This document shows, piece after piece, positions 191-10,937 of a stretch of 63,491 nucleotides of DNA. Position 1 is the first letter of the stretch, and each line of letters begins with the position of its first letter. Location: positions 1-63,491 of the forward strand of contig NZ_JAOZPV010000003.1 of NCBI RefSeq assembly GCF_029932565.1, read 5' to 3'. This DNA is from Hydrogenimonas sp. (GTDB taxonomy: Bacteria > Campylobacterota > Campylobacteria > Campylobacterales > Hydrogenimonadaceae). Made by a program: the position numbers and the translations under genes. The notes under the pieces are model-generated. The model saw only the letters and a list, made by a program, of their open reading frames with translations, ran no database searches and was not told where the DNA came from.

Positions 191-1585
191 TCAGATACCT
201 TCGGCGATCATCGCATCGGCGACCCGTTTGAAGCCGGCGATGTTGGCACCGTCGACGTAGTTGCCCGTCACGCCGTATTCGTCGGCCGTCTGTGCGACAT
301 TGGTGCAGATATGGACCATGATATCCTTGAGCTCCGCATCGACCTTCTCGAAACTCCACCGCATCATCTGGGCGTTCTGGCTCATCTCCAGCGCGCTGAC
401 CGCCACGCCACCGGCATTGGCAGCTTTGGCGGGTCCGAAACAGATGCCGCTTTCAAGGAAATAGTGGATCGCATCGGGCGTGGATGGCATATTGGCCCCC
501 TCCGTGACGCTCACGCAGCCGTTTTTGACCAGTGCTTTGGCGTCGGCCAGCGACAACTCGTTCTGTGTCGCGCACGGGAAGGCGGCGTAACAGGGGATAT
601 GCCAGGCGGCATGGCCATCTTTCGGATACTCCGAAACCGGAATGTACTGCGATTCCGGGTGTTTCCCGGCGTACTCTTCAAGCGATACTCTCTTCTCGAA
701 CTTCAGCTCCTTCAGAAGGTCGAGATCGACCCCCCGCGGGTCGTAGACCGTCCCTTTCGAATCGGAACAGGTCACGGGCACGGCACCCAGAGCATAGAGC
801 TTTTCAATGGCGTGCAGCGCCACGTTGCCCGAACCGCTCACGGTACAGACTTTGCCTTCGAGCGGTTTCTTTCCTTCGATTTCGAGCATCTTTTCGGTGA
901 AATAGACGACACCGTACCCCGTCGCCTCCGGACGCATCAGCGAACCCCCGAAAAAGAAAGGCTTCCCGGTCAATACCCCTTCGTAACTGGAGGTGATCTT
1001 CTTGTATTGGCCGAAGAGGTAGCCGATCTCTCTGGCACCCACGCCGATATCGCCGGCAGGTACATCGATACGCGGACCGATGTATTTGTGCAGCTCCTGC
1101 ATATAGGCGGAGCAAAAATTCATCACCTCGAAATCTGTCTTTCCTTTCGGATCGAAGTCACTGCCCCCTTTGCCGCCGCCGATGGGCAGACCCGTCAGAG
1201 CGTTCTTCAGAATCTGCTCGAACCCCAGAAACTTCAGGACCCCTTCGTTGACGGAGGGATGAAACCGAAGCCCCCCTTTGTAGGGTCCCAGGGCGTTGTT
1301 GAACTGCACACGATAGCCCGTGTTGACCTGTATCTGATTGTTGCGGTCCATCCATTCCACTTTGAATTTGAAAATCCGGTCCGGCTTGACGAGCCGTTGC
1401 ACGATGGCGTTCTCTTTGTATTTCGGATCGGAGAGGTAGAGTGGTGCGATGGAGAGGAGTACCTCTTCCATTGCCTGAAAGAAGACATCGTCCTCTCTGC
1501 AGTTCGGATTTCTCAAACTTTTGATGTACTTTCTCGCGCGTTCCAGATCTTTTTGATCGACGCTGGCCAGTCTGTTTTGTTTCAT
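191..1585 (-). CDS. gdhA: NADP-specific glutamate dehydrogenase
   Basis: Motifs GPYKGGLRFHP, GGGKGG, DVPAGDIGVG, RPEATGYG, SGSGNVA, GANIAGF; start taken as MKQNRL (ATG 1585) because the longer ORF overlaps the upstream gene. Confidence 0.95.
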   Translation of the reverse strand: MKQNRLASVDQKDLERARKYIKSLRNPNCREDDVFFQAMEEVLLSIAPLYLSDPKYKENAIVQRLVKPDRIFKFKVEWMDRNNQIQVNTGYRVQFNNALGPYKGGLRFHPSVNEGVLKFLGFEQILKNALTGLPIGGGKGGSDFDPKGKTDFEVMNFCSAYMQELHKYIGPRIDVPAGDIGVGAREIGYLFGQYKKITSSYEGVLTGKPFFFGGSLMRPEATGYGVVYFTEKMLEIEGKKPLEGKVCTVSGSGNVALHAIEKLYALGAVPVTCSDSKGTVYDPRGVDLDLLKELKFEKRVSLEEYAGKHPESQYIPVSEYPKDGHAAWHIPCYAAFPCATQNELSLADAKALVKNGCVSVTEGANMPSTPDAIHYFLESGICFGPAKAANAGGVAVSALEMSQNAQMMRWSFEKVDAELKDIMVHICTNVAQTADEYGVTGNYVDGANIAGFKRVADAMIAEGI

Positions 1586-1604: not shown

Positions 1605-3308
1605 TTATAGGCTGCAGGCTGTTGCGACCCTGTATTCCGACACTTTTCTCCCTTTCGTATCGACAATGTGAACGGCACACGCCAGGCACGGGTCGAACGA
1701 ATGCACGACTCGCAAGACTTCCAGAGGTTTCGTCGGATCGGCAAGATGTATACCTATCAGCGACTCTTCGTACGGGCCTCTGATCCCTTTCGCATCTTTG
1801 GGCGACGCATTCCATGTCGTCGGCACGACGGCCTGGTAGTTACACACTCTGCTCTCTTCGATTTTCACGAAGTGCGCCAGAACACCTCGCGGCACTTCAT
1901 GGATACCCCGCCCCTGCGCCGATTTTGGGAGTGTCTCAAACTCATATTTCGTCCAGGTCTCCTCATCGTAGTATTTGATGTTTTCGATCAGATCGCTGCA
2001 GAAGTCGAAAATGGTTTCACAGCAGATTTTCGCTTCGACAGCACGGGCGGCATTTCGGCCGATCGTGGAAGAGAAATCGATAAGTTCCATACCCGTCTCT
2101 TCCATGAAAGCCTCCACCGCAGGCTTGATGATAGTCGAATCTTTCAGATAACCGATGATCATACGTGCAGCGGGGCCCACTTCCATCGGTTCATTCTTGT
2201 AGCGTGGGGCCTTGACCCAGCTGTATTTTCCTTCCGTTTTGAGCGATCCGTCGTCGTTAAGGTCGGTATAGAACGGTACCGTCGATTCGTCGTAGGGCGA
2301 TGTCGGTCCATTCTCTTCATACCATGAACGTGACGCTTCTTCCGTGATATGATCGTCGTCGAAGGATTCGATATGTTCGAAATCGTGTCGATAAATGACA
2401 CCATTTTCAAACAGTACCGTACCGCTTGCGAGTCGGTATCCGCCGGCCGCCATGAAATTGCCGCTGCCGCGTCCGACTCCCTCTTTCATCTCCTGGTTGT
2501 ACGCTTCGACGAGCAGTTGCATATCGGGGATATAGGCGCGCTCGATGAAATCACGTGTATCCTTCATGATGAACATGTAGTCGTTCAACCGCTGGGGGTT
2601 GAGCATATCGGCCACACTGGTGACACCTCCGACGACCAGATTTTGCGGATGGGGTGTTTTGCCTGCGAAAATGGCGACCGCTTTGCTCAAAACCCTCTGG
2701 ACACGCAGCGCTTCGAAATAGTGGTTTATGAGAACGAGATTCTCCTCCGGAGTCAACCGGTAGGCGTCGTGTCCCCAGTATCCATTGGCGAAAAGCCCCA
2801 GCCGTCCCGCCTTGACAAAAGATGCAAGTTTCTCTTTCAATGACGAAAAATGACCGACCGACGATCGATAGGGATAGGAGTGATAGCGTTTCGCGACCTC
2901 CTCCGCTTTGGCGACATCCGCTTCGAGTGCACTGACGATATCGACATAGTCGAGTGAATGAAGATGGTAGAAATGGATGATGTGATCCTGCACGAAAAGT
3001 GAGAGCGTGACAAGATTGCGTATGATTTCGGCATTGGGCGGCGGTACGATGCCGTAGGCATCTTCAACCGCCGCAATCGATGCACGATAATGGACATTGG
3101 TGCAGACACCGCAGATACGCTGGGCAATCAGCCCCACATCTCTCGGGTCGCGTCCTTTCAGAATCACTTCGATGCCGCGGAAAAGCTGTCCCGATGCCCA
3201 GGCCTCCCTGACTACGTTTTCCTCGTCGATTTCGATTTCGATACGCAAGTGTCCCTCGATGCGGGTGATCGGATCGATCACGATTTTTTTGAGACGTCCG
3301 TTACTCAT
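1605..3308 (-). CDS. [NiFe]-hydrogenase large subunit, group 1-like (567 aa)
   Basis: DPITRIEGH, L1 QRICGVC, HFYHLH, KYSWVKAPRY, EVPRG, L2 DPCLACAVH followed by a cleavable C-terminal extension; start MSNGRL overlaps the upstream stop. Confidence 0.95.
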   Translation of the reverse strand: MSNGRLKKIVIDPITRIEGHLRIEIEIDEENVVREAWASGQLFRGIEVILKGRDPRDVGLIAQRICGVCTNVHYRASIAAVEDAYGIVPPPNAEIIRNLVTLSLFVQDHIIHFYHLHSLDYVDIVSALEADVAKAEEVAKRYHSYPYRSSVGHFSSLKEKLASFVKAGRLGLFANGYWGHDAYRLTPEENLVLINHYFEALRVQRVLSKAVAIFAGKTPHPQNLVVGGVTSVADMLNPQRLNDYMFIMKDTRDFIERAYIPDMQLLVEAYNQEMKEGVGRGSGNFMAAGGYRLASGTVLFENGVIYRHDFEHIESFDDDHITEEASRSWYEENGPTSPYDESTVPFYTDLNDDGSLKTEGKYSWVKAPRYKNEPMEVGPAARMIIGYLKDSTIIKPAVEAFMEETGMELIDFSSTIGRNAARAVEAKICCETIFDFCSDLIENIKYYDEETWTKYEFETLPKSAQGRGIHEVPRGVLAHFVKIEESRVCNYQAVVPTTWNASPKDAKGIRGPYEESLIGIHLADPTKPLEVLRVVHSFDPCLACAVHIVDTKGRKVSEYRVATACSL

Positions 3309-5736
3309 TTTCGGCCTCCTCTTCCAGCGGTCGTTCGTTGGCGTAAAGATCAAAGGCAATTTTCCCTTCGCCGCATGCGATACAACCGTGCCCAGCCTGA
3401 ACCGGCCAGCTCGTCCCTTCGTTGAATTTCACCTGCGGGCAGTTGAGGTCGGCGTAGGGACCTTTGCACCCCATTTTGAAGAGGCACCATCCCTGTTTCG
3501 CCCCCTCGTCACCCCACTCCAGAACAAACTCCTCGAGATCGTAATGGCCGCGACGTTCACAGTTGTCGTGGATACGGTAGCTGTAGGCCCATTTCGGACG
3601 TCTCTTCTCGTCGAGTTCCGGGATCTCGTCGAACATGATGTAATAGATCAGTGTCCCGACGACATTGGCGGGATTGACGGGACAACCCGGCAGATGGATG
3701 ACATCGTCGCGTTCCAACGCTTCCGATACGCCGACGGCACCCGTCGGGTTGGGTTCGGCCGCGACGACCCCACCGTCGAGGGCACAGGTGCCGACCGCCA
3801 GAACCGCTGCGGCACTCCCGGCCACTCTTTTCAGAAGTTCAATCCCGGTTTCTCCTTTCGGCCCGATTCGCAGATATTTTCCTTCCATTCCCAGCGGAAC
3901 CGCCCCTTCGACGATCAGGACGAAGCCCTCTTTCTCGTTTTCAACAATCGAATCGAGTGTACGTTCGCTCTGATCGCCCGCCGCCGCCATCAGAAGATCG
4001 TGATAGTCGAGTGAGATATAGTTGAGAATCAGGTCGGTGATCTTTGGCTGCGCCGTTTTGATGAATGCCGTGGAATTGCCGGTACAGTCGGCCAGTTCCA
4101 GCCAGACGATCGGAATTTTGTTGAGCTGTCTGATCGCCTGATCGACCAGCTCTTCATGCCGGGGTGACAGACGCATACTCGCCGTGATCATCGAAACCCA
4201 GCGATTGTATTCACGGTTCATATCGAGCGCTTTGATCGCCTCTTCGAGATTCTCCGTCGTGATCCTGTTTTTGGGATGGAGACGGTTGAACTTTTCGATC
4301 CGTTTCCTGATCTTTTCCATTTCGGCCGCCTCGCGGGCCGCCTCTTTCTCTGCCCGGATTCGCGCCGCCTCCTCGGGATCGACCGGCGTCTTCGCGATGA
4401 GATCGACGATATCCTGTTTGCAGCGCCCACAGACCCTCCCCGCCTCGGTCAACCCTTTGAGTTCCGCGAAACGGGTGACGGCGTTCTCTTTGATGAGTTC
4501 GACGAGGTCGAATTCGTACGTACCGGTACAGCTGCAGACGAGCCGTCCCCTCTCGCCCACCTTCCGGCTATGGTAGAAGAAAGTGGGATCGACCGGCTCG
4601 TCCTTCTCCATGATCCGTTTGAGCTCCATGACATCGACATTCGAGTTGAGTCCAATGAAGCGCCGCAGCCGGTCGTCGTTGACGATATACTGATCGACCC
4701 GTTTCTCTTTTCTCGATTCGATGATGATATCTTCGTTTTCCGGATCACGGGGATCGTATTTCGGCGACGAAACGTCGGTAAAGAGAAAGGCACCCACTTT
4801 CAGCCCGTCGATGGCCGGCTCGTGTTCAAATCGTTCCGATTCGATCCCCAGGATGTTGGCGACCGCCACATCCGCTTCCTGTGTGCTTTCCCTGACACGA
4901 CCCGCGACAAAACCGTCGCTTCGCAGCTGGGCCGCCTCCCCTACCGCATAGATGTCAGGATCGGAAGTCCGCATCGTCTCGTCGACAAGGATGCCCCTGT
5001 CAACCTCCAGAACACCTCTTGCAAAATCGACGTTGGGGGTGATACCGACACCGAAAATGAGGAAGGGATCGTCGATGGTATGATGCTTCGTCACGATCGT
5101 CGCAAGGCGGTTTCCCTCGATTTTTCTCTCGACGATTTCGTCGTGATAGGAGATCGTCACACGCGGATCGGCTTCAAAAATCTCCGATATCCACGCCACC
5201 GCCATCGGATTGAGTGCACGATCGTAGAGATGCGCTCCGCGTGAAAGAAGAAACATCCTCTTCGGATCGGGCATTTTGACCAGGGTGTCGAGAAGTTCCA
5301 GGCCGATGGGACCGACGCCGGAGATGATGACGTTACGCCCCTTGATGCCTTTCGCGATTTTGAAACTGTCATCGGCACTCCGAAAGGTCGCAGCGTTTTC
5401 GATCCCACCGATGTCGAAAAGCGTTTTCGGCTTCGAGCCGGTCGCGATGATCAGTTTGTCGTATCCGAAGAGGGCATTTTCGGTCACCACCTTTTTCTCT
5501 TCCGGCTCGATGGAGAGAACGCGTTGATTCAGCTCCACGTTTACATCGGGGTGGAGTTCGAGCAGAATATCTTCCAACGCCGCGCTTCCGTCGACCAGCC
5601 GGCAGAGATGAATCCGGTCGTAGGGCGGATACCTCTCGGCAGAGAGAATCACTACCTCGTGCCCCTTTTCCCGCTCCATGATGGTGTTCGCGGCGTGTGC
5701 CCCCGCGATACCCCCACCAATGATGACGATACGCAT
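3301..5736 (-). CDS. Fusion: FAD/NAD(P)H oxidoreductase (NirB/rubredoxin-reductase-like) + BFD-like [2Fe-2S] domain + [NiFe]-hydrogenase small subunit (811 aa)
   Basis: MRIVIIGGGIAG, ATGS, SGVGPIGLE, TSDPDIYAVGE; VCSC...CGRC; WLELADCTGNS, GTCA, LPGCP, HDNCERR, WCLFKMGCKGP, GHGCIAC; RBS AAGGAG before ATG 5736. Confidence 0.9.
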   Translation of the reverse strand: MRIVIIGGGIAGAHAANTIMEREKGHEVVILSAERYPPYDRIHLCRLVDGSAALEDILLELHPDVNVELNQRVLSIEPEEKKVVTENALFGYDKLIIATGSKPKTLFDIGGIENAATFRSADDSFKIAKGIKGRNVIISGVGPIGLELLDTLVKMPDPKRMFLLSRGAHLYDRALNPMAVAWISEIFEADPRVTISYHDEIVERKIEGNRLATIVTKHHTIDDPFLIFGVGITPNVDFARGVLEVDRGILVDETMRTSDPDIYAVGEAAQLRSDGFVAGRVRESTQEADVAVANILGIESERFEHEPAIDGLKVGAFLFTDVSSPKYDPRDPENEDIIIESRKEKRVDQYIVNDDRLRRFIGLNSNVDVMELKRIMEKDEPVDPTFFYHSRKVGERGRLVCSCTGTYEFDLVELIKENAVTRFAELKGLTEAGRVCGRCKQDIVDLIAKTPVDPEEAARIRAEKEAAREAAEMEKIRKRIEKFNRLHPKNRITTENLEEAIKALDMNREYNRWVSMITASMRLSPRHEELVDQAIRQLNKIPIVWLELADCTGNSTAFIKTAQPKITDLILNYISLDYHDLLMAAAGDQSERTLDSIVENEKEGFVLIVEGAVPLGMEGKYLRIGPKGETGIELLKRVAGSAAAVLAVGTCALDGGVVAAEPNPTGAVGVSEALERDDVIHLPGCPVNPANVVGTLIYYIMFDEIPELDEKRRPKWAYSYRIHDNCERRGHYDLEEFVLEWGDEGAKQGWCLFKMGCKGPYADLNCPQVKFNEGTSWPVQAGHGCIACGEGKIAFDLYANERPLEEEAENE

Positions 5737-5737
5737 C

Positions 5738-6202
5738 TCAATCTCCTTTCGGGCCGGCAGGCTCACCTTTTCGGGCCGCTCTCTTTTCCGCTTTTTCGGC
5801 CTTTTTCTTCTCGGCATAACGTTCCCGGCTCTCTCGGGCAACCGTCTGCCAAACAAACCACTCATCGTTGACGTTCTCGGCCTTCGATGCGGGATTCGGC
5901 TTCTCGGAGGAGTGGGTCAATGCCTCGTCCGCTTTTGGACATGCCCGCACACACTCCCCACAATAGATACAGAGCCAGGGGTTGTATCGGTACTCCTTGT
6001 GCCCGTCATCGTGCTGGTAGAAGACGATCGCCTTTGGAGGGCACGCCTTCTCACACCGGTCACAGAAGATGCAATGCTCCACATCGTAGAGAATGAGTCC
6101 CCGATAGTCGGAAGGCACCTGCACATCCCCAACGAAAGGGTATTTCACCGTATGGGGTGGTTTGAACATATTGCTCCAGGCATTGGCCAGTGATCTAAAC
6201 AT
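5738..6202 (-). CDS. echF: Ech hydrogenase 2x[4Fe-4S] subunit F (NuoI-like)
   Basis: CIFCDRCEKACP and CIYCGECVRACP; T.KYPF, YRG motifs; AAGGAG RBS favours the MFRSL start at 6202 over 6223. Confidence 0.88.
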   Translation of the reverse strand: MFRSLANAWSNMFKPPHTVKYPFVGDVQVPSDYRGLILYDVEHCIFCDRCEKACPPKAIVFYQHDDGHKEYRYNPWLCIYCGECVRACPKADEALTHSSEKPNPASKAENVNDEWFVWQTVARESRERYAEKKKAEKAEKRAARKGEPAGPKGD

Positions 6203-6253
6203 CCAAATCTCCTTCTCTGCCATTCGATAAAAGCGAACCGCAACGACCCTTTC

Positions 6254-6288
6254 TCAATTCTTCACTCTTCACTTTCCACTCTTCACGC
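6254..6288 (+). repeat. Degenerate 7-bp tandem repeat in the echE-echF spacer
   Basis: tcaattc ttcactc ttcactt tccactc ttcacgc. Confidence 0.7.
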
Positions 6289-6290
6289 AT

Positions 6291-7376
6291 CTATTTTGCC
6301 GTACACGACATACAGGGATCGAACGATGCCAGTATCGCCGGTGCATCGGCGTATTCGCTCCCTTTGAAAATTTCGACCATCGCCGGTATGCCGGAAAAAG
6401 TCGGAGTTTTGATACGTACACGGTCCAGGAAATTCTTGCCGCTGCCACGCACCAGATACATCAGTTCCCCCCGCGGTGCCTCGAGTCGGACGATCGCCTC
6501 ACCTTTGGGTTTGCCTTTGATCTTCAGCAGATGCTCTCCCTCCGGCAGGTTCTGCACGATGTTTTTGCACATCTCGATGCTGTTGAGAATCTCATAGAGC
6601 CGCACCATATTGCGGGCGTGGATATCGCCTCCCTTCTCGAGAACCACTTCGAAACCGACCTCTTCGTAAGGCAGATCGGAACTCTCCAGACGTACGTCCG
6701 TCCGCAACCCGGCAGCGCGGGCGAGCGGCCCGAGGGTATTGTAGATGCACGCCTCCTCGTAGGTCAGCATCCCGACACCTCTGTATTTCAGTGAAAGGGA
6801 CCAGTTTTTCGAAAACTCTTCCAGCAGTCGTTCGATTTTCGGTTTCAGCGCATCCAGTGTCGCCACGACCTCTTTCGCCGTCTCGGGCGAAATATCGCGA
6901 TGGACACCACCGATGGCGATATAGTCAAACTGCACCCGGTTGCCGCTGATCGCCTCCTGCAGGTCCATAACCGGCTCCCGTGCCGCCATCACTTCCATGA
7001 ACATCGCTTCGAAACCGGCATTTTCCGCTGTATGGGAGAGGCAGAGCATATGGGAGTGGATGCGATCGAGTTCCACCATCAGCATCCGCAGATAGTCGAT
7101 TCGCCGGGTGCTTTCGAACTCCAGCATCTTTTCGACGGCGAGCGTAAATGAAAGCGAATGGGTGATGGCGCACAGACCGCATACCCGGGCAACCACGTAG
7201 GGGAGTTTTTTCCATTCGAACTGGGTCACACACGCCCGCTCTATTCCGCGATGGACGAATCCGACATCGGCTCCGACCTCGACAATTTTTTCGTTATGGG
7301 TCTTGAATTGAAAACGGACCGGCTCCAACAGAGAGATATGCTGGGAACCCAACGGTATATTGATCACTTTTTTCAC
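6291..7376 (-). CDS. echE: Ech hydrogenase large (catalytic) subunit E, group 4
   Basis: G.QH..L.EP, GFVHRGIE, ARVCGLC, EAPRGE, RIKTPT, DPCMSCTAK; 361 aa, no C-terminal extension. Confidence 0.93.
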   Translation of the reverse strand: MKKVINIPLGSQHISLLEPVRFQFKTHNEKIVEVGADVGFVHRGIERACVTQFEWKKLPYVVARVCGLCAITHSLSFTLAVEKMLEFESTRRIDYLRMLMVELDRIHSHMLCLSHTAENAGFEAMFMEVMAAREPVMDLQEAISGNRVQFDYIAIGGVHRDISPETAKEVVATLDALKPKIERLLEEFSKNWSLSLKYRGVGMLTYEEACIYNTLGPLARAAGLRTDVRLESSDLPYEEVGFEVVLEKGGDIHARNMVRLYEILNSIEMCKNIVQNLPEGEHLLKIKGKPKGEAIVRLEAPRGELMYLVRGSGKNFLDRVRIKTPTFSGIPAMVEIFKGSEYADAPAILASFDPCMSCTAK

Positions 7377-7735
7377 ACTTCACACCCTCCCAATCCCATC
7401 GTTTTCAGAGGGGTTTTAAGCGAATCGTCACTCAGGTAGAGCTTTCCTTCGATGCCTTCGATTGTCAAACCGAACATATCCACCACCTCACGCTCACCCA
7501 TGATGGCCGAGGGAATCAGTTTCACGATAGAGGGTACCTCTGTTTCGTAATCGGTAATGCAGTAAAACACAACCGTTTCATCCTTTGCACCATATTTCGC
7601 AAAGATCCACTGCAGCTCGATCTTCCCATCGTCCAGGTCTATCCCGTTGAGAGTCAGAAAGTGCCACTCGTACCGATCGTAGAACTCTTCGATCGTTTTG
7701 ACCACTCTTTCGAGAGTCGTTTCAATCTTTTTCAT
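7373..7735 (-). CDS. echD: Ech hydrogenase subunit D (NuoC-like)
   Basis: VPSI..LIPSA..GEREVVDMFG motif; lies between echC and echE with 4-bp overlaps. Confidence 0.85.
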   Translation of the reverse strand: MKKIETTLERVVKTIEEFYDRYEWHFLTLNGIDLDDGKIELQWIFAKYGAKDETVVFYCITDYETEVPSIVKLIPSAIMGEREVVDMFGLTIEGIEGKLYLSDDSLKTPLKTMGLGGCEV

Positions 7736-8256
7736 TTTTCCTCCCCAATACGTTTCGCCATTGTCAACCGGCTGATCTTTTTTCCGATCCTCTTTATCCC
7801 ACCGAAGAGCCGGAATGGTTTTTCGATCGCTTTGTTTTTCTTCTCAAGTATCGACAACGCCTGCACGATCCCGTCGATAATGAGCTGTGGCGAGGCGGCA
7901 CACCCGGGTACATAAACATCCACCGGGATGTACCGATCGATGCCGTCTTCAACATTGTACATACCACGAAAGACCCCGCCGGTCGAGGTACAGGCTCCGA
8001 CAGCGACGACCACTTTGGGTTCGGGAATCTGACTGTAGAGTTCCACAAGTCGCTCTCTGGAGTGAAACGTTACGGGACCCGTCACCAGAAAAATGTCCGT
8101 CTGCTTCGGATTTCCCGTATTGACGATGCCGAAACGCTCCAGATCGAATCGGGGACTCAGCGCTGCGAGTATCTCTATGTCACAACCGTTGCAGCTGCCG
8201 GCATTGTAATGGAGAATCCAGGGTGATTTTTTCCTGAACTGTGCCAACCATTTCAT
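7732..8256 (-). CDS. echC: Ech hydrogenase small subunit C (NuoB-like)
   Basis: KSPW, GSCNGCDIE, VAVGAC, VDVYVPGC; start MKWLAQ (ATG 8256) overlaps the echB stop. Confidence 0.92.
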   Translation of the reverse strand: MKWLAQFRKKSPWILHYNAGSCNGCDIEILAALSPRFDLERFGIVNTGNPKQTDIFLVTGPVTFHSRERLVELYSQIPEPKVVVAVGACTSTGGVFRGMYNVEDGIDRYIPVDVYVPGCAASPQLIIDGIVQALSILEKKNKAIEKPFRLFGGIKRIGKKISRLTMAKRIGEEK

Positions 8257-9074
8257 GTGAGCATCCAGACGATGTTGATGCCTGCCAGCAGCAGTGCCAG
8301 CAGGTAGCTGATTTTGACCATATCGGCTGCACGGACTCGCGCGGTGGCATTGTCGACGAGGTTCACCAGGATGAACGTACCGATGACCAGCAGTGCCCCG
8401 AGCCAATAGTCCGCTCCTCCAAAGAGGAATACGAAACTGTAGATGAAGATATACTCCAAAAAACGTGCCATATAGAGAAACTCGAAGAAGAAACCGCTGT
8501 ACTCCACTTCCACGCCGCCGACGATCTCCTGATGCCCTTCGACCACATCGAACGGCGACTTTTTCACTTTGATGGGAAGAATGACGAGCAGCGCCAGAAA
8601 GAGCAGTGGCATCTGCGACAGATAGCCGCTGTGGTGCAGAATGTCACCGATATAGAAACTACCCGCATACAGATAAAACCCGACCGTCACAAGCAGCAAA
8701 ACCGGTTCGTAGGCCACCAGCGCAAGGAGTTCGCGGTTCGCTCCGATCTGGGAAAAAACCGAACGGACACTGTAACCGGCGATAACCAGCACGATCAGCG
8801 CAAAAAGATGCAGAAAGACAATATAGAGGAGATTCCAGCCAAAAAAGATGGCACCCACCGTAATCCATAGAACCAGAAAATGTACGACACCCAGCAATGC
8901 ATGGGCGGAATGGATGACGAGCGTGCGTTTATCCATCAACTTGAACATGTCGTAAAAAGGCTGCAGCAGCGGAGGCCCCTGACGTCGCTGCATACGGGCA
9001 CGCAACACCCTTTCCCCGCCATAGACCAGCCCGCCGAGCACCGGTGCCATCACGATCCAGAACCAGGTTGTCAT
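8253..9074 (-). CDS. echB: Ech hydrogenase membrane subunit B (NuoH-like)
   Basis: ARMQRRQGPPLLQPFYD, KSPFD..EGHQEIVGG...EYSG; multiple TM helices. Confidence 0.92.
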   Translation of the reverse strand: MTTWFWIVMAPVLGGLVYGGERVLRARMQRRQGPPLLQPFYDMFKLMDKRTLVIHSAHALLGVVHFLVLWITVGAIFFGWNLLYIVFLHLFALIVLVIAGYSVRSVFSQIGANRELLALVAYEPVLLLVTVGFYLYAGSFYIGDILHHSGYLSQMPLLFLALLVILPIKVKKSPFDVVEGHQEIVGGVEVEYSGFFFEFLYMARFLEYIFIYSFVFLFGGADYWLGALLVIGTFILVNLVDNATARVRAADMVKISYLLALLLAGINIVWMLT

Positions 9075-10837
9075 GAGAGGGCTCCTGTCAACGCGACCGA
9101 CACGAAAAGAAGTGTGAAGAACGTATAGATAGCCACCCGTATTTTCGGAGTCGGTTCGTAGTAATAGAGTGCTGCATCAAACGACTCCTTCTCGCCGCAG
9201 TGATAGCATTTCACACGATCAAAACGATCCATCCAACGATACGCCAGTGGCGCCAGAACGAGCATGGCGATGGGCACGAAAAAGAGTGTAAGATCGGCCA
9301 CTTGCTGAACGGCCGCCAGCCGGATTGTCGTGAAGACGACCAGAACGGCGAGAATGGCAAGCGGCAGGAGAAACCCGGACGGCATCGCTTCATGCCCGAG
9401 ACCGACGATGTCCGAAGGCCGCGAGAGGATGGCCGCCGTCACTTTGAAATAGAGAAGCACCAGCAGTGTGCTGCCGATCAGAATAGAGAGAAGCAGCAAG
9501 AAAAGCCCCGGATGGTCCGGCAGCATGTGAGAAACCTCTTCGATGGCAAACAGCTTGACGATAAAAAGACCAAAAGGCGGCAATGTCAGCGAGACGAATC
9601 CAAACAGAATGAAACGGGCACTTTTCGGTGCCGTTTCAATCAATCCTTTCATATCCTCGATATCTTTGAGATGGTGCAGTTTTTCGACCACACCCGCCGT
9701 CATGAAGAGCATCGCTTTGGAGAGCGCGTGAAAGAATATGAGCACCATCGTCAATATCGATGTCTCGGGCGTACCAATGGCTGCCAGCGCCATCATAAGT
9801 CCCAACAGTGCGATCGTGGAGTAGCCGAGGATCTCCTTGAAAACGGTACGCGAAAGGGCCAGATAGGATGCGGCGACAAATACGAAGCCGCCGAATGTCG
9901 AGAGCAGCAGACCCACACCCGTGCCTCCCAGAGCCGGAGAGAGTTTCAGAATGAGCCACGGGGCAATTTTCACCATTGTCGCCGAGTGGAGGATGGCACT
10001 GACGGGTGTCGGTGCCACCATGGCACCAAGCAGCCAGCCGTCAAAGGGGATCGACGCTCCTTTGACCAGCGCCGCCATACTTACCAGCGAGACACAGAGC
10101 AGAAGGGTGCCGCCGACACTCCCGGTCAATGCATCGAACCGTGTGGTGTCGTAACCGTAAATGGCGCAGAGCGTTCCGAGCAGAATGACGACACCTCCGA
10201 TCTGATTCATCCAGAGTGCCTTGAGTGCGTTCTTCTGTGCCGTTTCGTCGCCTCTGAAACCGATGAGAAGATAGGAAGCCAGTGTCGTCATCTCGAAAAG
10301 GAAGAAGAAGAGCAGCAGTGAATTGCTTACCACGACAGCGTTCATAACCGAAAGAAAGAGAAGCAGATAGGCGATGAAAAGCCGCTTCTTCTCTTCGGAG
10401 ATCTCTTCGTAGCTCATATACCGCACGGCGTAAACGACGATGATTCCGCCAACAATATTGATGATGAGAAACATGAAAGTCGACAGAGCATCGACGACGA
10501 CTTCCGCACCCCCCTCTTCGGGAAGAACCGATTCTGCCCAGCCATAGAGCAGCAGCTGTATGACCGCCAGCAGTGTGATGATCCGCCGATCGAACCGTCG
10601 CCCCTGCCACAGGAAATAGAGAAGCAGCAACAGATCCGCAATTACGATGAATAGTTCGAGCCAATGGGGAAAATGGAAGGTCAGAACAGCACTGCCGAAG
10701 TAAAGCTTCAACGCCGTCGCAGACAGCAAAACGACGGTTGTCGCAAGAAGTATATATTGCATTTTTTCGGATCTGAACCATCTCAGGAGCAGTGTCGCAA
10801 CAATCGGTAACAGAATAAGTAACATAGCACCTGGCAT
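9071..10837 (-). CDS. echA: Ech hydrogenase antiporter-like membrane subunit A (NuoL-like)
   Basis: WLLGAMVAPTPVSAILHSATMVK, ILGYSTI, FHALSKAMLFM; many TM helices; AAGGAG RBS favours start 10837 (ORF track gives 10852). Confidence 0.92.
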   Translation of the reverse strand: MPGAMLLILLPIVATLLLRWFRSEKMQYILLATTVVLLSATALKLYFGSAVLTFHFPHWLELFIVIADLLLLLYFLWQGRRFDRRIITLLAVIQLLLYGWAESVLPEEGGAEVVVDALSTFMFLIINIVGGIIVVYAVRYMSYEEISEEKKRLFIAYLLLFLSVMNAVVVSNSLLLFFFLFEMTTLASYLLIGFRGDETAQKNALKALWMNQIGGVVILLGTLCAIYGYDTTRFDALTGSVGGTLLLCVSLVSMAALVKGASIPFDGWLLGAMVAPTPVSAILHSATMVKIAPWLILKLSPALGGTGVGLLLSTFGGFVFVAASYLALSRTVFKEILGYSTIALLGLMMALAAIGTPETSILTMVLIFFHALSKAMLFMTAGVVEKLHHLKDIEDMKGLIETAPKSARFILFGFVSLTLPPFGLFIVKLFAIEEVSHMLPDHPGLFLLLLSILIGSTLLVLLYFKVTAAILSRPSDIVGLGHEAMPSGFLLPLAILAVLVVFTTIRLAAVQQVADLTLFFVPIAMLVLAPLAYRWMDRFDRVKCYHCGEKESFDAALYYYEPTPKIRVAIYTFFTLLFVSVALTGALS

Positions 10838-10937
10838 GACAACTCCTTGCATGCGCCCATCTGAGAATCATCTTAATGATCCAGCAGCCAGGGCCGCTCC
10901 AAAACTGCAACGGTATTCAGAGTAGCCTGATGTATTT

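Follow-up and report, generated by a model that had tools for sequence, protein, structure and literature searches.

The window analysed in this study (the whole stretch of 63,491 nucleotides from Hydrogenimonas sp., contig NZ_JAOZPV010000003.1) carries a [NiFe]-hydrogenase small subunit fused to a flavoprotein, followed by the large subunit. The features are listed below, with residues counted along the fusion protein.

191-1582, minus strand: NADP-specific glutamate dehydrogenase, next after the large subunit, in the place of a cytochrome b
1605..3308, minus strand: [NiFe]-hydrogenase large subunit, 567 aa, overlapping the stop of the fusion gene, with the motifs IAQRICGVCTNVH and SFDPCLACAVH
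3301..5736, minus strand: fusion gene, one open reading frame of 811 aa, comprising a NirB-like FAD/NAD(P)H domain, a BFD-like [2Fe-2S] domain, an apparently leader-derived linker and a [NiFe]-hydrogenase small subunit
4393..5736, minus strand: flavoprotein module, residues 1-448 (PF07992, E 1e-40; PF04324, E 2e-8)
Residues 1-291 of the fusion, minus strand: Pyr_redox_2 (pyridine nucleotide-disulphide oxidoreductase) domain, from Pfam
4393-4542, minus strand: BFD-like [2Fe-2S] domain, residues 399-448, from Pfam
4318..4377, minus strand: charged helical spacer, residues 454-473, differing between fusion subclades
4228..4317, minus strand: homologue of the long n-region in group 1b leaders, residues 474-503, with R479, K482, N484, H487, P488 and A500 (nearly) invariant
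4198..4224, minus strand: dead twin-arginine site, residues 505-513 (DMNREYNRW), opposite G-x-S-R-R-D-F-x-K-W and one residue shorter
4135..4200, minus strand: homologue of an h-/c-region, residues 513-534, with W513, T518, L523 and F/Y527 kept and polar residues gained
3304..4134, minus strand: mature small-subunit part, residues 535-811, with no C-terminal membrane helix
4075-4086, minus strand: first cluster motif C551-T-G-N554, in place of C-x-x-C
5738-10852, minus strand: Ech-type (group 4) membrane hydrogenase cluster of six genes, immediately upstream of the fusion gene

Besides the Pfam domains listed, the NirB model TIGR02374 aligns to residues 3-452 of the fusion with a score below its cut-off, and Pfam places the two domains of the [NiFe]-hydrogenase small subunit at residues 551-792. 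The large subunit carries the L1 and L2 motifs of group 1b, a label taken from PMC4744846 in the portion of that paper available. An oxidoreductase domain fused to the small subunit, a length of about 810 aa, and the lack of both an RR pair and a cytochrome b are the marks of the flavoprotein-fused hydrogenase of the XCL-2 type, and all are found here. In the homologue search 783 of 7,994 candidates matched, and the best 120 of the 783 include Sulfuricurvum and other Campylobacterota names; the closest named homologue among the matches listed is from Hydrogenimonas urashimensis (88% over residues 400-811), and the listed homologues have the same fusion architecture. The motif C-[ST]-G-N is present throughout the fusions compared, and C-x-G-N is common to one RR-bearing Campylobacterota/Aquificota type of HydA and to soil-metagenome enzymes.

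The glutamate dehydrogenase lies near the fusion in none of 65 other loci, and its adjacency is therefore not conserved. On the other side, the stop of the last gene of the Ech cluster touches the start codon of the fusion gene, and Ech-like genes occur in the neighbourhood of the fusion at 17 of 65 loci from both fusion subclades (15 for the antiporter subunit; many loci end early). A search for a stand-alone donor of the flavoprotein returned just fusions or fusion-like fragments, with lengths of 446-1420, among the best 120 of 695 matches. In the organism's own genome neither a stand-alone hydA nor HypD was found, and one query each for HypB and HypE gave no match; as the assembly stands at 96% completeness in 127 contigs, a missing hydrogenase cluster is the likely reason for these gaps. 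The edge of contig C94 of this genome encodes a maturation protease and HypF.

Between the flavoprotein and the mature small subunit, the linker of residues 474-534 (4317-4135, minus strand) is homologous, over its full length, to the long Tat leader found in HydA precursors of group 1b. The earlier note on this DNA had quoted a sequence directly before the small-subunit core, which is indeed present there as residues 475-546 of the open reading frame 5736..3301, and had proposed that a whole group 1b precursor sits behind the flavoprotein, as the full-length homology bears out. The hydA family model TIGR00391 begins to align at residue 495 of the fusion, at model position 4, and 1h2a, the one full precursor among the structure matches listed, aligns to the fusion through its RRDF. 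A leader HMM, built from 59 HydA leaders with mature residues left out, was run on 14,151 open frames of the organism's own genome. The linker ranked third (E 0.004) behind two N-terminal RR-type peptides and was the only match to span the model (positions 3-63 of 64); on reversed frames the best E was 0.25.

Profile-profile comparison of 152 fusion linkers with 132 leaders gave an HH probability of 98.5% (E 3.9e-15, score 70.2), against a score of 13.8 for the reversed profile and at most 19.8 in 60 column shuffles, so that the alignment to HydA leaders on which the earlier idea depended is significant. Each part also matches by itself: the n-region part, with the RR site left out, at a probability of 77% (score 20.4 against a shuffled maximum of 13.3), and the part from W to the cleavage site at 97% (34.8 against 11.8). 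Two sets of anchors had been said to line up with HydA leaders; W and the spacing do so, but the P..WL stretch belongs to the mature core and not to the leader. A further candidate, that the spacer region (residues 443-479) was part of the leader too, was rejected, since the N-terminal extension of long HydA leaders gave no match to it (probability 0.3). The spacer proper (454-473) is the most variable segment at larger distances and likely holds the fusion junction.

The likeness is also found in the other direction. Residues 450-540, searched in 401 genomes, matched strongly at 27 places, which are fusions, and weakly at another 30 (E 6e-5 to 0.01 per genome). Sixteen of the weak places were tied to the 5' ends of stand-alone HydA (13 by overlap with hydA search matches and three by other comparison), 12 had HydA-sized frames, and two had none. 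Of 51 leaders selected with TIGR00391 alone, 50 scored 10 bits or more with a linker HMM, compared with none of 42 RR leaders of other groups; the top scores, up to 38.9 bits, went to a Persephonella-named protein and similar long leaders. The likeness of the linker is therefore specific to the long 1b leaders. A search of the ESM Atlas with residues 454-540 gave no usable match.

The twin-arginine motif itself is gone. Within the nine residues before the conserved W, none of 152 non-redundant fusion linkers has RR, a check that the earlier note had called for, and one has RK; the window protein has three RR pairs, all elsewhere and none in a Tat context. The linker thus combines homology to a Tat leader with a degenerate RR site, as a remnant Tat peptide does. 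One fusion subclade retains the spacing in full, K replacing the first arginine and the residue at the second being variable (e.g. DIAKDEVNRW), and the subclade of the window is one residue short at the site (DMNREYNRW); the third form is that of the protein P0147, GVAPREFNNW, in which the second arginine is kept. Three alignments place the single-residue gap behind R508 and one places it ahead of N507, and N507 and R508 occur in 50 and 47 of 121 homologues, respectively. Since the register varies between alignments, the proposed change of RR to NR is not fixed: the loss of RR stands, but NR is lineage-specific and belongs to one of two registers in a clade that lost one residue there. At most one arginine survives at the site, and which one differs by register.

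The other features of an exported enzyme are lost as well. Over the 22 residues from W, mean hydropathy is -0.03 in fusions vs +0.98 in leaders, and charged residues number 4.8 vs 1.1, so the h-region has become polar as had been noted; its first nine residues are still h-region-like, and the charges cluster beyond them. At the -3 position, Ala is found in 58 of 61 leaders and E, K or G are commonest in 67 fusions, and the A-x-A cleavage site is lost. In sum, of SRRxFLK, a hydrophobic h-region, an N-terminal position and A-x-A, which make a functional Tat signal, the linker has none. A C-terminal membrane helix is present in none of 111 full-length fusions vs all 101 RR proteins scored. A cytochrome b gene directly follows the large subunit in none of 47 fusion loci with room for it vs 49 of 50 RR loci, the latter count being partly by construction because those 49 loci also built the cytochrome b model. 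Tat export, tail anchor and cytochrome b, all features of the prototypical group 1b enzyme, are thus missing from the fusion. From the loss of RR, tail helix and cytochrome b, the fusion enzyme very probably stays in the cytoplasm.

It is hard to reconcile these losses with a live export signal, be it a class V Tat signal, internal and not cleaved off, or the N-terminus of a small subunit translated on its own. Tat signals that follow a folded cytoplasmic domain within the chain do exist (FecR; PMC13673990, in the part available), a GAGG lies eight bases before M473 in the window, and TatC is encoded in the genome. However, besides the absence of RR, the best 13-residue Kyte-Doolittle mean is 0.43 in fusions (0.62 in the window) vs 1.48 in leaders (range 0.99-1.96), and export would part the Fe-S chain from the FAD with no cytochrome b alongside. 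A conserved internal start in the linker was rejected as a candidate, since a ribosome site with a start codon occurs in 9 of 85 loci, which equals the background of 0.10, and M473 is present in 37 of 121 homologues. A live export signal is thus very improbable.

Loss of the export features did not leave the linker free to drift. Among 121 close homologues (the window protein counted twice) the linker is gapless, and R479, K482, N484, A500, W513, S515, T518, L523 and V531 are invariant. Over 30 disjoint close pairs its dN/dS is about 0.08, a rough value since dS is near saturation (1.4), and that of the core is 0.03. At a core distance of 0.1-0.2 the linker has diverged by 0.38, the flavoprotein by 0.40 and working leaders by 0.42. 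The linker is therefore under purifying selection and is as conserved as the flavoprotein domain. Some residues are conserved in linkers and leaders alike (R479 in 67/67 and 59/61; W513, T518 and L523 in 67/67 and 61/61), and others, K482, N484, H487, A500, N511, S515, M516 and E528, are close to fixation in fusions alone.

That the linker is a passive fossil decaying neutrally might be read from the loss of RR, h-region and cleavage site, from the RR positions being among the most variable linker columns, and from the RR and h-region part diverging somewhat faster in linkers than in working leaders (0.32 vs 0.24). Nevertheless, the dN/dS, the residues newly fixed in the fusions, and the fact that one single-residue indel, and one only, separates the two fusion subclades make neutral decay about as improbable as live export. 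The earlier description of an export signal that had decayed is therefore not upheld.

To place the fusions, trees were constructed on the small and large subunits, with the linker excluded, from 16-37 hand-chosen rows out of 71 complete pairs and a few additions; Desulfovibrio-type and group 1a enzymes are thinly represented in them. The fusions form one clade (100/100), which groups with two RR-bearing 1b clades (support 92/87, 100/100 and 88/85, by outgroups and model). The three-way split between the fusions and the two RR clades is not separated (AU p 0.28 and 0.48 for the donor clade), and the leader scores of the two RR clades are nearly equal (68.5 vs 65.4). The C-x-G-N motif common to the fusions and one RR clade is a suggestive hint at the donor, but the motif also occurs in other groups. 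Hydrogenovibrio and Thiomicrorhabdus fusions (L125, L126, L129 and L130) group with the fusion of the window, nested among those of Campylobacterota, in agreement with the transfer of the fusion hydrogenase proposed in PMC4744846 in its available part.

The earliest fusion branch, placed on the core alone (100/99), is P0147, and it is also the most leader-like, with GVAPREF at its RR site and 32.9 bits vs 17.7 for the window. This single record of 413 aa has its Met start at the BFD domain and may be either a call cut short or a form that naturally consists of BFD domain and small subunit; close relatives were found neither in one metagenome scan (59 loci) nor in the 401 genomes. Two stand-alone small subunits, L052:3938-5569 (-) and L053:4004-5515 (-), have open frames of 500-540 aa without RR, and no adjoining large subunit was found for them. 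By eye, their N-termini resemble a further leader remnant in shortened form, but the leader HMM gives no significant match to them (E 2.8 and 280).

The change could in principle have run in the opposite direction, from an ancestral cytoplasmic helical N-terminal element to the group 1b Tat leaders. With a Tat-less Streptomyces enzyme as the sole distant outgroup, the best tree, this once and without support, is rooted on the fusion stem, and this root position is not rejected by AU tests (p 0.41 and 0.15); therefore the tree alone does not prove direction. Against this order of events, the three outgroup trees cited above join the fusion with the 1b clades, RR is present in the haloarchaeal and the 1c/1d/1e-type outgroups, the other group 1 leaders seen have their RR in a common register, and the linker matches 1b-type leaders only. 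In addition, the earliest fusion branch is the most leader-like, and fusions are scattered over the phylum (27 of 401 of its genomes) while hydA is matched almost everywhere in it (148 of 151). Descent of the leaders from a cytoplasmic element is accordingly a most doubtful proposition, slightly less so than neutral decay. By parsimony and the early-branching intermediate, the ancestor of the fusion was in all likelihood exported; the direction from periplasm to cytoplasm given in the earlier note is thus the most likely one, though the rooted tree is no proof of it.

Since the linker is leader-like and lacks RR, yet is conserved, it appears that an exported enzyme was likely made cytoplasmic and that its leader was likely re-used as a helical connector. 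In the most likely course of events, a duplicate hydA precursor would have become joined to the end of a NirB-like flavoprotein-BFD module. Now that a folded domain stood in front and the electron acceptor was on the same chain, export would have been selected against or become irrelevant. The RR pair, hydrophobic core, cleavage site, tail anchor and cytochrome b would then have been lost, while the leader helices would have been kept as the connector. Following the proposal of Scott 2006 (PMC1635747, in the part available), electrons might flow from H2 through the Fe-S chain, the BFD cluster and FAD to NAD(P).

The predicted structure is consistent with a connector. An AlphaFold model of residues 450-811, from an alignment of 128 rows (67 fusions and 61 RR precursors) and with the flavoprotein not in the model, has helices at 454-486, 494-503, 507-520 and 525-536 (pLDDT 76-94, pTM 0.85); the full-length model has similar helices at low confidence, with a linker pLDDT of about 47-62 and a pTM of 0.56. 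Fold searches with the 450-811 model returned hydrogenase small subunits, matching on the core and scarcely probing the linker. The reading preferred here is that residues 474-534 are a homologue of the 1b Tat leader without RR, likely brought in by fusion of the precursor to the flavoprotein and now likely a helical connector of the two halves, to which we give a probability of roughly 0.6. On balance, we infer that the remnant probably packs as a structural unit, keeping the Fe-S chain of the small subunit close to FAD and the BFD cluster for electron transfer between H2 and NAD(P).

The same helices could instead serve as a membrane tether, binding the inner face of the cytoplasmic membrane in replacement of the lost tail anchor. 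The helical stretches have hydrophobic moments of 0.49-0.67, with a net charge of +4 on residues 473-486, and Thiomicrospira crunogena strains with this type of large subunit show uptake activity in the membrane fraction (PMC4744846, available part). However, amphipathic helices fit a bundle equally well, three of the five stretches measured are net acidic, and a second hydrogenase of strain SP-41, bearing a Tat signal and a cytochrome b, can explain the membrane activity (PMC6501319, available part). A membrane tether is therefore improbable.

A role as maturation handle is less remote than a tether, though still unlikely. On this reading, which has its model in NarG, the remnant would stay bound to a chaperone, or to the immature small subunit, until Fe-S cluster insertion and assembly with the large subunit are complete. 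It is in keeping with this that NarJ proofreads NarG by binding a remnant Tat peptide (according to the available text of PMC10609526) and that the shared residues R479, W513, T518 and L523 lie outside the Tat consensus, as expected if a non-export function persisted. On the other hand, no dedicated chaperone was identified among the annotated recurrent neighbours of 65 fusion loci, and the same conservation fits intramolecular packing, with which a handle is in any case compatible.

A more general idea, which we hold only tentatively, is that the long 1b leader is a small folded unit with a second job, performed through R479, W513, T518 and L523, besides being an address label. If so, the fusion family would be a natural experiment in which export was removed and the second job was kept as a permanent docking domain, with a graded series from RREF in working leaders to PREF in P0147 and then to K-x-E-V and the one-residue deletion in the two main clades. 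The linker points to residues by which non-export roles of long 1b leaders can be tested.

The fusion enzyme has been in print since Scott 2006 (PMC1635747), followed by Hansen and Perner 2016 (PMC4744846) and Gonnella 2019 (PMC6501319), and in their available parts all three describe it as being without a twin-arginine leader; the H2:NAD(P) oxidoreductase activity is a proposal of the first. By description, the fusion in the window resembles the enzyme of Thiomicrospira (Hydrogenovibrio) crunogena XCL-2 and SP-41 in its small subunit, which has two parts, about 813 aa and sites for FAD and NAD(P)H, in its group 1b large subunit, the lack of a cytochrome b and the homologues in Campylobacterota (the same three papers). 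Those accounts, in the parts available, report the Tat signal as missing and make no mention of a leader inside the chain. The present result revises that description and argues against mere degeneration of the operon, which the available part of PMC4744846 suggests as a possibility. The literature searched, with most subscription journals and supplements outside its scope, yielded no paper on such an internal Tat remnant in this enzyme. Both the enzyme type and remnant Tat peptides are known already; what the linker adds is a clear sequence record of the likely conversion of a quinone-linked uptake hydrogenase of the periplasm into an NAD(P)-linked enzyme of the cytoplasm encoded by two genes, and an instance in which a signal peptide has likely been recruited as a structural element within the chain. 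Large-subunit labels (group 1b, 'periplasmic uptake') can also misplace such enzymes in surveys of vent and groundwater Campylobacterota.

Compared with working group 1b HydA leaders (Wolinella, Helicobacter, Sulfurovum and Aquificota), the linker shares the length, the spacing, the long n-region helix, the W after the FxK position and the L-P..F.P-L-V stretch, but it is internal, lacks RR and A-x-A, has a polar h-region and has gained new invariant polar residues. A remnant twin-arginine peptide of E. coli NarG was reportedly described by Ize et al. in 2009. That remnant is a helical Tat-derived peptide with a second job, kept on an enzyme that is not exported; the linker is likewise Tat-derived and predicted to be helical, it probably has a second job too, and its enzyme very probably stays in the cytoplasm. 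The NarG peptide is N-terminal and binds NarJ, whereas the linker is internal and its 61 residues include n-, h- and c-regions (PMC10609526, as far as the available text goes). Finally, as in class V Tat substrates such as FecR, a signal-like segment lies between two folded domains, but those substrates keep the RR and a membrane-spanning h-region (PMC13673990, available part) and the linker of the fusion has neither.
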